This document shows, piece after piece, positions 3,001-6,000 of a DNA stretch of 37,884 nucleotides. The stretch lies in UHGV virus genome UHGV-2203451, one strand, 5' to 3'. The position numbers were made by a program. The stretch comes from a virus. Each line of letters opens with the position of its first letter. The first letter of the stretch is position 1.

Positions 3001-6000
3001 CGAATGAATCCATCAAGGAACTGTTCATTATAACTTTTGGCTATCTGATAACATCCAACAGCATCAATGCGTTCGATTGTGAATTGCCAACTATCACCGC
3101 AGTTAAAATTCCATTTCCAGCCGTATTTCTGTGCGAATTCATCATATTCAACATTTGCAGGTTCAGAACAGAAAGATAAAAATCTAAATGTTGGTTTTGG
3201 CCTTAGATGGTTAAGCCCGGCACCTCTTGGGGTATATATGGCATTATCTCCATTCCCACCTTTTGTTTTAACTGTAAGGTGACTTAAACCAAATTCAATA
3301 TCATATTTTGTTGGCGCAGCAAAAACAAAGCCGTCTTTTGGTGATGTGGTATTGTCAAACACAATAACCGTTTCACCCTGCCCATCACCGCATATATTTA
3401 TGGGTGGTATATTAACAGGACCAGTCACATTGTATATTCCTTTTGGCACATATAGTTTTCCGCCCTCTCCGAGAGCATTCGCTGCAGCAATAAATGCTGG
3501 CGTATCATCGATAATATTATCCCCTTTCGCCCCAAAATCTTTAACATTATAAACGTCACGCATCTTATCCTGGAACGTTCTGTATACTGCCCCAGAACCA
3601 TACTGAATAAACCAACCAAAACCACCAACAACTCCGGCAATTGCAGCATCGACATAATTACGCATTGAGCGATTATTTACAGCGTCCTGCTCAAGTGATG
3701 GATCTGCAAGGTTAGAAATTCTGTTTTGCTTTGCATCGTAATATTTTGCAAGCAAAGATGGTTTCATCAATGCACGTCTGAACCACCCAAAACATTGCTG
3801 GATCAGCATCGTCAGGTAGTCAAAGGCATCTTCATGCACTTCGGGAAAAAACTTTCCCTGATTGCGAAGATCTGTCTCCTGTACTACATCAAGCACACGA
3901 TCTATCGTAATTCGCCATCCAGTAGCAAGCGGAGACGGAAGAACCACAGAACCGCCACTATAAGTGCCAGCTCCAGTTACTGTATAACCGGTATCCAGAA
4001 CCAATTCTGTTACGTTCCCGTTCAGGTCAGACACCTGAACAACCAGGTCGGATTTTTTGAAAATGCGGAAAGTATACGGAAACGATGTCGTAACTCCGTT
4101 ACCGGTGTATTCGTTGTGGTCAACTTCGGTTGAGACCGTCATGTTAAATCTCCAGATAGTCGCAGCACCCGTTGCGCCGCATATCTGGTTATTCTATTAC
4201 CTGGAAAACCACATATGGATAGAAAGGCTGTAAATACGAATAGATATTACCTTTCAGGTAATTTGCAAAACGTGCTGGATAGCAAACAAATTATTTGCTA
4301 CTGTATAAATATACAGTTATTGCATGGAGAAGATAAGATGCAGCAGTATCACTATCCACTGGAAGACGGATTTACCGAAAGGATTCACACGCCGGGAGGC
4401 GTCAGGTCACTGGTGGAGGGATCGCACTTGATGAAATTACTCCGGGATCTCGATAAGGATGGATTTAATGTCGATGGCCCACTTGCCGAACTGACTGCAC
4501 TGATTAACTACGTCACCAGCTCACAGATGTCTATGCAGGATCTGCAAACACATCTCGACTATTGTGCCGAACAATTACGAAAACAAACCCGGTAAATTTA
4601 AAGGCCGCAAGAGCGGCCATTAACAGTCGTAAAATTCCGGGTCCCACAAACTTGCATCGCGCGGCATGGATTCTAAATTTTTCAGCCGCAAAATTCTGTC
4701 ACACTCGACAAGAAGTTTTTGTTTTTGTTCGTCAATTTCTACTTTTTTGTGTGCTGGCTCATCCCAGTAATCCAGAAGAAACGCATGTCGCTCAGACGTT
4801 ACAAGATAAATCACATACACATCACTGGTTGGTATTTTTTTATGCTTGTTGGTGGTCTTGTCTTTCTTCCCGGATGCCCAGTTTTTCCAGCATTGTTCCG
4901 TACCGCTCTCACCAAACTTGTCAGTATAGTTTCCGATGTTTACGTGAACGTGGCGTATGTGATATTCCAGCATCTCTTTCGGTGGATCCCGAAACAGAGT
5001 GTCCTTTCCGAAATCCTTATGATGACCGTAGCGCCAGTGATCTATGAACGCGTTTTTGATAGGTATTAGCTCAGGGTCCTTCCCAAAAATTCCAGGGTGA
5101 ACCAACCCCTGGAATTTATTCAGCATCGTCGTAGAGCTCCTGAGCCATATCTTCGGCAGTGCGTGCAAACATCCTGCGCGAGATTGCATGAGATTTCTCG
5201 ACGGACATCTTTGGGACCTCATGCATAACATTTTTGGGAGTTGTGTAATAGCCTATTACAATTTTCACACCTGACTTATGATTAATATCAGCATAATATA
5301 CTTCTTGTTCAGACGTTTCACGACGAACATAATCTGCCAGTTTTCCACATTTAAATTCCCCTCCCTGATGTTTTAAAATCTCCTCAACTGCACTATTTTC
5401 AGTGAAATACCGAATAAGAAATTTCTGTCCAGACTCTTCAGCATGAGGTATAACAGTATTATTGGAAGCCCGAACAATGGCCTTACTCAATATTTCATGG
5501 TCTTTATTTTTTTCTGATTTCCTCAAATGCTGCATTACTGTAGCTCTCTTCGTGTTCACGGGCACCCCCAACTACCTCTAGGGTAAACATTCTATCGAAA
5601 GTATACGCATACTGGCAAAAAAATAGGCAGGTATTTTCTGAAATGGGATCAATCAAACCACATAGGGTTGAAATAACGTGAGTTATGCATTTATTATTAC
5701 CTTTGCGGTAAATTTACATCGCACTCCTCTTGTGCCATAGTAATCGGGCACTGGAAAAATCCAGTGCCGGGATTGGCGTCCCGGATTACTAAAAGGCGCA
5801 TTCACCGCGCAAGCGGTTTTTTTATGCGTATAGCACGGCCACATTCGTATTATGGTGGGCTGTGTGGGGGCACCGAAAGGTGCGCCGGGTCCTTTTAGCC
5901 GGTTACGCCAACCCTGCACAGTTCACCACCAACCGATTGGCGTCGGTAGTGGTGATTAACCAGACTAAAAGGTAACCACTATGACAGCTACAAAAAGCAC

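Follow-up and report, generated by a model that had tools for sequence, protein, structure and literature searches.

A putative YafO-type toxin-antitoxin operon with a repressor-type palindrome at its promoter in a Uetakevirus-type Escherichia coli prophage

Introduction

The virus genome UHGV-2203451, a stretch of 37,884 nucleotides that is called the window in this article, is an epsilon15/phiV10-like (Uetakevirus-type) Escherichia coli prophage. Among its accessory genes is a cassette of two overlapping minus-strand genes, encoding a variable upstream protein and a downstream protein of the YafO toxin type, which a first-pass annotation made from the DNA sequence had proposed as a candidate toxin-antitoxin or abortive-infection module. 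Here we describe the cassette, its relatives and the motif at its promoter, and weigh the readings that these permit.

Layout of the cassette

The features of the cassette are as follows.

5589..5618, minus strand: sigma-70-like cassette promoter (TTGCCA 5618-5613, 18-nt spacer, TAGAAT 5594-5589), 10 of 12 positions matching
5572..5586, no strand assigned: operator-like palindrome at the cassette promoter, read on the minus strand as TTACCCTAGAGGTAG, with one mismatch to TTACC-N5-GGTAA, ending 13 nt before GTG 5559
5116..5559, minus strand: upstream gene, putative antitoxin of 147 amino acids from GTG 5559 (139 if from ATG 5535), stop codon 5116-5118
5224..5559, minus strand: variable N-terminal module of allele type N1, residues 1-112 of the upstream protein
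5119..5223, minus strand: conserved C-terminal tail, proposed toxin-binding segment, the last 35 residues HEVPKMSVEKSHAISRRMFARTAEDMAQELYDDAE; contains the AGGAG site of the toxin gene
4620..5126, minus strand: toxin gene, 168 amino acids, predicted RelE/HigB fold, putative divergent member of the YafO family
4593..4618, minus strand: intrinsic-terminator-like hairpin, GGCCGC-TCTT-GCGGCC then TTTAAATTTA, facing the end of the convergent reading frame 4215-4595
4596..5706, no strand assigned: the cassette as insertion/deletion, 1,111 bp in the window against 41 bp in phage phiV10, with flanks 96-97% identical

Both open reading frames (ORFs) of the first-pass annotation were recovered, one running from 5535 to 5116 (139 residues from ATG) and the other from 5126 to 4620 (168 residues), with an 11-nt overlap at 5116-5126. 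The frame and the stop of the upstream ORF were right, but its start is most likely GTG 5559 and not ATG 5535. Relatives carry ATG at the position aligned with GTG 5559, with GGGGG or GGAGG before it as a ribosome-binding site, and RefSeq calls the same start, so that a protein of 147 residues is more likely than one of 139. The AGGAG ribosome-binding site of the toxin gene sits inside the last codons of the upstream gene, and the toxin gene is predicted to be translationally coupled to it through the overlap. Codon changes relative to the related locus L024 place both genes under purifying selection, with 64 synonymous and 10 non-synonymous changes over the 168 codons of the toxin, and 17 and 3, respectively, over the 35 codons of the partner tail. 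Two plus-strand ORFs antisense to the toxin gene (4562-5047 and 4719-5069) were dismissed, since the substitution pattern fits the minus-strand frame.

The promoter and the terminator proposed for the cassette were also borne out. The former is the joint best match in the region, together with one plus-strand site, while promoter-like matches as a class are not enriched there (7 found against 4.7+/-2.1 expected); the divergent relatives L029-L031 have retained, amid diverged flanking sequence, TTGCCA and a TAnAAT/TACAAT -10 box with unchanged spacing. The terminator hairpin at 4618-4593, with its T-rich tail, has a predicted RNA fold of -15.8 kcal/mol (z = -3.4), and an equally stable fold was obtained from 0 of 200 shuffles. 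An Rfam scan found no RNA family within the cassette, and only IsrK and C4 alongside it, which leaves a type I or type III (RNA antitoxin) reading unsupported.

The interval 4620-5535 has a G+C content of 41.7% against 47.9% for the window and lies within the lowest 9% of 916-nt windows. It had been described as AT-richer than the flanking phage genes, which is true of the right flank (Bro-N gene, 53.0% G+C) but not of the left flank (tailspike, 41.0%; ORF 4215-4595, 43.0%). Inside the cassette the values are 35.7% for the N-terminal part of the upstream gene, 51.4% for the tail and 43.6% for the toxin gene.

The downstream gene encodes a YafO-type protein

The downstream protein had been noted for motifs reminiscent of YafO-type mRNA interferases, and this resemblance holds in its fold, in a transitive profile link to PF13957, in shared invariant residues and in gene order. 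RefSeq already labels it a "type II toxin-antitoxin system YafO family toxin". The remark that the pairing may be undescribed is therefore too broad for the toxin and apt for the rest, as the partner and the pairing are unannotated and no paper on them was found; the literature on the cassette, on YafO in Uetakevirus-type phages and on antitoxins with a hypervariable N-terminus yielded nothing specific.

The AlphaFold2 (AF2) model of the toxin has a predicted local distance difference test score (pLDDT) of 92 and a predicted template modeling score (pTM) of 0.87, and in this model the protein adopts a RelE/ParE (BECR) fold. Eleven of 15 close relatives match PF13957 (best E 1.6e-5), and a precomputed match to the same family exists for five relatives. 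A profile built from 41 clade members found 79 representatives at E<=1e-3 among 1.84 billion proteins; 55 of these 79, the query and YafO of E. coli K-12 were aligned as a set of 57 sequences, 36 of which match PF13957 (best E 1e-39). Four residues of this alignment (F27, G40, H61 and H126) do not vary at all, and two more (D42 and Y107) hardly vary. BLASTP to K-12 YafO gives 31% identity over 54 residues, and the pairwise alignment with YafO spans FGKD/FGRD, R-x-x-H and P-x-H-K.

Judging from these alignments and the model, the toxin appears to be a member of a long (168-171 residues), divergent branch of the YafO family. This branch occurs in Escherichia, Klebsiella, Serratia, Salmonella, Enterobacter, Yersinia and others. 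The assignment fits the published classification, which puts PF_YafO into the BECR-fold RelE/ParE superfamily and gives it an antitoxin-then-toxin gene order (PMC11980606). YafO is known for mRNA cleavage and translation arrest (PMC2814082, PMC8546651).

Between 5 and 12 separate stretches (E 6.6e-11 to 2.7e-5) match the toxin-clade profile in each of three large proteins, P0107 (3,067 residues), P0128 (1,017 residues) and P0138 (1,133 residues). YafO-like segments within repeat or multidomain proteins would account for this, as would low-complexity artefacts.

The upstream protein and its conserved tail

The earlier remark that the upstream protein resembles no nameable antitoxin family was confirmed by Pfam, NCBIfam, PADLOC and the PDB, none of which gave a match. 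The cassette proteins match only PHROG families of unknown function, 9503 in the case of the upstream protein and 1651 in that of the toxin. Family scans of eight other partner variants and of all 25 members of the partner alignment (A4) gave nothing credible either, and a profile of the tail searched against all PDB sequences, PaaA2 complexes included, gave only a chance match (E 0.72).

The conservation of this protein is concentrated at its end. Across 25 relatives there is little or no variation in the last ~35 residues (VMxEVPKMSVEKSxAISRRMFARTAEDMAQELYDDAE), and the first ~110 residues are 35-50% identical or unalignable. The last 40 residues of 26 distinct tails, covering all toxin clades, align without a gap and share the pattern P-x-x-x-[ML]-[ST]-x-x-E-x-x-x-[IL]-S ... 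[FY]-D-x-x-E-stop, the end of which ([FY]D..E and stop) is present in every group but L062 (FCCAE). We considered the tail as a homolog of the YafN C-terminus (..ISRR..ELYDDAE in the tail, ..ITRR..DDDFNDFKE in YafN) and rejected this, as a hidden Markov model of the 26 distinct tails gives YafN -0.4 bits, rank 2,542 of 10,001 against shuffled YafN.

Further copies of the pair were taken from 46 IMG/VR contigs and, for more distant toxins, from assemblies of NCBI and ENA. Of the 46 IMG/VR loci, 43 show an overlap of 11 or 14 nt between the upstream gene and the start of the toxin gene; the overlap is 23 nt in L062, and the partner was not called in two loci. The same pairing was found in the NCBI and ENA contigs. 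Partner length spans 55-183 residues across the loci, and the 65-residue partner of L015 consists of little beyond the tail.

Tail identity tracks toxin identity (Spearman 0.72). Among toxins at least 90% identical to each other, the median identity of the tails is 97% and that of the N-terminal parts 41%, with a minimum of 26%. The co-variation of tail and toxin, the purifying selection and the minimal partner are the signatures expected of a tail that binds and neutralizes the toxin, and the upstream proteins may, on their sequences, constitute an unclassified, new antitoxin family.

Exchangeable N-terminal modules

Compared with the related loci L020 and L022, the DNA of the window is 94-100% identical in the promoter bins (5572-5744), 15-72% identical in the bins of the N-terminal coding part (5571-5203) and 85-100% identical over tail and toxin. 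The N-terminal alleles are discrete, since that of the window occurs in 39 complete E. coli genomes with at least 99% identity each time, and the toxin region is 92.8%-100% identical across the 58 genomes that carry it. Clustering separated at least eight unrelated N-terminal module types. Module N4 was found with toxin groups T1 and T2, which are ~40% identical, and T1 was found with both N1 and N4. The loci L007 and L033 are 96% identical over 133 nt upstream, and their toxins are 40% identical. From the mosaic boundaries, these combinations of modules and toxins and the upstream identity of L007 and L033, we infer two units of exchange, promoter plus N-terminal module and tail plus toxin, which are joined at the domain boundary.

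A repressor-type motif at the cassette promoter

The cassette promoter is followed by a palindrome that was exposed by comparing the promoters of relatives. An inverted-repeat search of the promoter region had reported none there, because the arms are only 5 nt long. As the palindrome starts 2 nt past TAGAAT, it covers the expected transcription start. It is the only palindrome at the cassette promoter, and it is the phage-wide repressor motif: TTACC-N5-GGTAA, counted at one mismatch or fewer, occurs 14 times in the window against 0.85 expected, and 0 of 100 shuffles reached 14. In epsilon15 (NC_004775.2), ATTACC-N5-GGTAAT is annotated as protein_bind "repressor / lysogeny" at seven places. 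The motif copies of the window and the proposed regulator gene are as follows.

4247, 5572, 5697, 6743, 24038, 27231, 27249, 30992, 31054, 33000, 33337, 33385, 34097, 34159: the 14 motif copies
33455..34039, plus strand: CI-like helix-turn-helix repressor gene, proposed regulator in trans, 42% identical (E 2e-54) to the epsilon15 helix-turn-helix regulator, which has an annotated repressor structural match

Motif pairs 18-62 nt apart were noted at five places, namely ~27.2 kb, ~31.0 kb, ~34.1 kb, the cI/cro intergenic region and the divergent promoters at 5572/5697. The copies at 33337 and 33385 lie between the CI-like gene and a divergent cro-like ORF and those at 34097 and 34159 downstream of the CI-like gene, and single copies (4247 and 6743) stand upstream of accessory genes on both sides of the cassette region. 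Some copies appear inside coding sequence when mapped through the annotation of E. coli IHE3034, a placement that is uncertain because this annotation is offset from the window there. The impression, gained by eye, that most copies follow a -10-like hexamer did not survive a strict scan, in which only 4 of the 14 sites abut a -35/-10 pair; this is still ~20-fold over the 0.2 expected. The 100 nt preceding the partner gene contain the motif in 20 of 29 distinct related loci, and in many of these its core is perfect.

Since an annotated repressor motif follows the promoter and has 14 copies in the window, the cassette appears tied to the lysis-lysogeny switch. Its probable regulators are the prophage repressor and the Cro-like protein, acting in trans, and not, or not only, its own antitoxin. 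The earlier picture of a free-standing, self-promoted cassette expressed in the lysogen is weakened by a repressor-site palindrome 2 nt past the -10 box.

Prophage setting and neighboring genes

The 1.4 kb around the cassette are 100% identical to the genomes of E. coli IHE3034, APEC O18 and others. The prophage of IHE3034 has its integrase at its end, adjoining guaA, which is the reported attachment site of the Uetakevirus-type phage group (PMC9782041). Toxin and tail are present in 58 of 5,426 complete E. coli genomes (~1%), on the chromosome in every case.

The slot of the cassette holds other cargo in phage TL-2011b, which encodes there a 242-residue protein (L017 3218-3946, minus strand; also L013 1774-2502). 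Its N-terminus is apparently hydrophobic (by eye), and its Cys-rich C-terminal region resembles endonuclease VII/Lar-like zinc-finger PHROGs. The tailspike gene (1560-4142, minus strand) encodes 860 residues in the window; in the K1 strain IHE3034 (L001 2624-5743) it encodes a 1,039-residue protein with an endosialidase domain. As tailspikes differ between genomes with a 100% identical cassette, receptor-binding modules are exchanged directly beside it. The minimal pair of L015 (3807-4510), with a 65-residue partner and a 169-residue toxin, adjoins an AlpA-like gene (faint Pfam match) and an IS66 element and is not in a Uetakevirus-type context; the pair therefore also moves independently of Uetakevirus-type phages.

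The cassette had been placed between antirepressor genes, which is loosely right. The right neighbor has a Bro-N domain (E 2.3e-21), and a Bro-N protein is an anti-repressor in Uetakevirus ZX5 (PMC9782041). The left neighbor (ORF 4215-4595, plus strand; RefSeq start 4338) is a paralog of the right neighbor's C-terminal domain that stands alone (42% identity over 74 residues, E 3e-15); this homolog of epsilon15 gp19 has its own operator motif at 4247 and a weak match to an anti-repressor PHROG. The features on the right side are as follows.

5668..5933, plus strand: divergent neighbor region, with the promoter TTGAAA-N18-TATTAT (5668-5697) and an operator motif at 5697-5711, leading into the Bro-N gene 5981-6676
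5748-5823, plus strand: IsrK, an Hfq-binding small RNA, 76.7 bits
5848-5933, plus strand: C4 antisense RNA, 77.7 bits

A match to the C4 a1/b1 target element at 5735-5787 scores 41.7 bits, which is below the gathering score. Judging from these matches, IsrK, C4 and the Bro-N gene form an antirepressor control region of the P1/P7 immI type in a podovirus-type prophage.

Downstream of the Bro-N gene is a second accessory slot, which in the window (6817-7449, plus strand) holds the gene of a 210-residue protein of PHROG 1349 (unknown function), with an operator motif at 6743; Pfam and PADLOC gave no match to this protein. In EC.W1-9 and TL-2011b the second slot holds a second, paralogous pair (L002 7393-8194; L017 5187-5886). 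The downstream gene of the TL-2011b pair is a YafO family toxin in RefSeq, and the pair of EC.W1-9 is inferred from gene sizes and overlap, so that EC.W1-9 would carry two pairs.

Proposed working of the cassette and competing explanations

We consider it probable that the cassette is a two-gene type II toxin-antitoxin operon on a 1.1-kb insert, in which the tail of the upstream protein neutralizes a YafO-family RNase and the promoter is gated by the prophage repressor. The toxin-antitoxin reading, already offered as a candidate in the first-pass annotation, is supported computationally by the coupled pair, the YafO-family toxin and the co-varying partner tail. In this scheme the acidic, two-helix tail would bind and neutralize the toxin, which, when freed, would cleave mRNA and halt translation, and the N-terminal module would be an accessory part, concerned with stability, sensing or regulation, and not the neutralizing one. 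The sigma-70 promoter would be gated in trans by the CI-like repressor, and probably also by the Cro-like protein, through the operator over the start site. Expression of the operon would then stay low as long as lysogeny is stable and go up once repressor is lacking, which would be the case upon induction or when a non-immune cell is infected.

Several observations weigh against parts of this scheme. The toxin of the window itself matches PF13957 neither at E<=1 in Pfam nor at E<=10 in the alignment scan and has no NCBIfam match at E<=1; hhalign to K-12 YafO alone covers 110 columns with an E of 0.003 and a probability of only 10%; and a Foldseek search with the toxin model gave no structure of the PDB or BFVD at E<=0.001. 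The partner has no DNA-binding or antitoxin domain recognizable in the Pfam and NCBIfam scans, and its AF2 model is unreliable (pLDDT 44), suggesting two terminal helices at low confidence; the prediction was probably hurt by an input alignment that mixed non-homologous N-terminal modules. Hence co-variation and synteny are all that argues for binding of the toxin by the tail, and co-variation of adjacent segments can also come from plain linkage. With regard to the promoter, the repressor sites of epsilon15 are record annotations, and the cassette operator is among the weaker copies of the motif (9 of 10 core positions and 10 of 12 positions of the extended ATTACC-N5-GGTAAT), so that repression may be partial. 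Its mismatch is common to all N1-type promoters but that of L020, which has no copy within one mismatch, and the N4-type promoters are without the motif. Finally, shutting off a toxin-antitoxin operon at the onset of lysogeny would put new lysogens at risk of being poisoned, barring leaky expression or a stable partner.

The mismatched operators of the N1 type and the N4-type promoters without the motif equally favor a different view of the same pair, namely that its own promoter drives constitutive expression in the lysogen and that it serves abortive infection or exclusion, with a palindrome that is non-functional or mildly modulating. The cassette has its own promoter and terminator, it is a discrete insert that phiV10 does not have, and N-terminal diversity next to a conserved toxin is the pattern that an arms race would be expected to leave; RelE-superfamily toxin-antitoxin modules are documented in phage defense (PMC11980606). 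We nevertheless hold constitutive expression to be rather unlikely, because the palindrome, 2 nt past the -10 box and over the start site, takes the classical position for repression and is retained in 20 of the 29 related cassette promoters. The search of PADLOC-DB 2.0.0, to which the first-pass annotation had pointed as a check, also speaks against a defense module of this kind, since no family matched either cassette protein at E<=1; the neighboring genes gave no PADLOC match either.

The operator motif that the cassette shares with promoters across the phage, the immunity region included, would also suit a lytic-cycle RNase with a built-in delay, where the pair is expressed early after infection or induction, the promoter is closed by the Cro-like protein or the repressor, and decay of a labile partner leaves the RNase to degrade mRNA of the host or early mRNA of the phage. 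Its purpose would then be shut-off or the early-to-late transition and not defense. The position in the antirepressor region, beside C4/IsrK and the Bro-N gene, fits such a timer, as does the fact that in some phages this region has paralogous YafO-like pairs in two slots. Yet the cassette is dispensable, being absent from phiV10 and many relatives and its toxin present in only the 58 complete E. coli genomes, and a timer leaves the exchangeable N-terminal modules unexplained; we regard it as improbable.

Type II toxin-antitoxin pairs on mobile elements are classically associated with addiction, P1 phd-doc being the textbook case. For the present cassette this would mean that a longer-lived toxin kills cells that lose the prophage, with which gene order and coupling are in keeping. 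We give it very little credence, because spontaneous loss is rare for a prophage integrated by guaA, as seen in IHE3034, because addiction needs steady expression in the lysogen, against which the operator argues, and because the N-terminal diversity would go unexplained. Just as little credence is given to the view that the cassette is not a toxin-antitoxin pair at all, the upstream protein being an adaptor, chaperone or specificity factor for a RelE-fold RNase, or the RelE-fold protein being catalytically inert. It would accommodate a partner that resembles no antitoxin family, a likeness between tail and YafN that failed the direct test, and a toxin that departs from the 132-residue YafO in an insertion of ~35 residues and in an extended C-terminus. 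It runs against the retention of the family-invariant His, Asp and Gly positions, against the coupled antitoxin-then-toxin order and the tail-toxin co-variation, which are the standard signature of neutralization, and against a minimal partner of 65 residues that is little more than the tail.

For the repressor-gated toxin-antitoxin operon that we favor, the biological use would most likely be phage-versus-phage competition or exclusion, to judge from a module diversity reminiscent of an arms race; we rank a delayed lytic RNase second and prophage addiction third. A more far-reaching version of this reading, which we put forward as doubtful, is that the partners are an undescribed antitoxin family with a toxin-specific tail and interchangeable N-terminal modules that act as sensors or decoys for cues from competing phages or host proteases, tied to the CI/Cro operator, so that release of the toxin would be set by both the repressor level and a fast-evolving sensor.

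Significance

YafO is the least understood RelE-type toxin of E. coli, its structure being unsolved and its ribosome dependence disputed (PMC8546651), and the prophage clade offers a longer relative of it that is confidently modeled. As the partner is reducible to a tail of ~35 residues, the neutralizing contact should be easy to map, and the natural chimeras, in which one toxin is found with different N-terminal modules and one module with different toxins, are ready-made domain swaps. A functional repressor motif would put this toxin-antitoxin operon under the master repressor of the prophage instead of its own antitoxin, and such control would bear on the timing with which prophage toxin-antitoxin modules are expressed and hence on the question whether they can serve for defense in lysogens at all. 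If none of this holds, what is left is another annotated YafO-family toxin beside a hypothetical neighbor in ~1% of complete E. coli genomes.

Comparison with known systems

The closest known counterpart of the cassette is YafN-YafO of E. coli K-12, with which it shares the antitoxin-then-toxin order, the RelE-type fold and, in RefSeq, the YafO family name. Motifs of K-12 YafO recur in the toxin: FG[KR]D, an R-x-x-H in the next strand, and P-x-H-K close to the C-terminus. Unlike the 132-residue K-12 protein, the toxins of this clade have 168-171 residues, with the insertion at about residues 65-100 (conserved C79, W80 and W83) and the extension at the C-terminus. The partner is without the Phd/YefM domain of YafN in Pfam and NCBIfam, and the genes overlap by 11 nt where yafN and yafO are separated, in a prophage setting and not in the dinB operon. 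HigB systems have the reverse gene order (PMC11980606). To the ribosome-dependent mRNA interferases HigB/HigB2, RelE, YafQ and YoeB, whose structures are solved (5mje, 7nbu, 6af3, 6kml, 4q2u, 1wmi, 7v6w), the toxin is only 7-18% identical, and it has no sequence-level match to any PDB chain.

In PaaR2-PaaA2-ParE2 of E. coli O157 prophages and in omega-epsilon-zeta, the antitoxin has no DNA-binding domain and the regulator is a separate protein. By analogy, the logic proposed for the cassette would be similar, with a short helical segment for neutralization and another repressor acting at the promoter operator. The cassette differs from these systems in that it has no third gene; the proposed regulator is the CI-like repressor of the prophage, acting in trans on an operator shared with about a dozen phage sites.

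Type II antitoxins of the "mix and match" kind combine an exchangeable N-terminal domain with a toxin-specific C-terminal segment. Like them, the partners described here keep their C-terminal segment with the toxin and trade their N-terminal module between toxin clades, with the recombination junction at the domain boundary. Unlike in these antitoxins, the N-terminal modules match no usual DNA-binding fold in Pfam and vary among near-identical loci of one phage lineage, and the promoter motif that is kept across module types is that of the phage repressor and not module-specific.

In P1/P7 immI, the C4 antisense RNA controls ant under a repressor with dispersed operators. It is the neighborhood, and not the cassette, that resembles this system, with C4 RNA, a1/b1 targets and IsrK directly upstream of the Bro-N gene and a dispersed repressor motif; the cassette is an optional insert, divergent from the C4/Bro-N operon.

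Judging from these comparisons, the cassette would be a variation on an ordinary toxin-antitoxin module and not a new kind of system, the partner family and the pairing being what appears new. The modular architecture of tail and N-terminal part seems to follow the known logic of type II antitoxins, and regulation by a separate repressor would have its precedent in the three-component systems. What seems particular to this cassette is that its N-terminal modules are without the usual DNA-binding domains and vary between near-identical prophages, and that the conserved promoter element looks to be the prophage's own operator.

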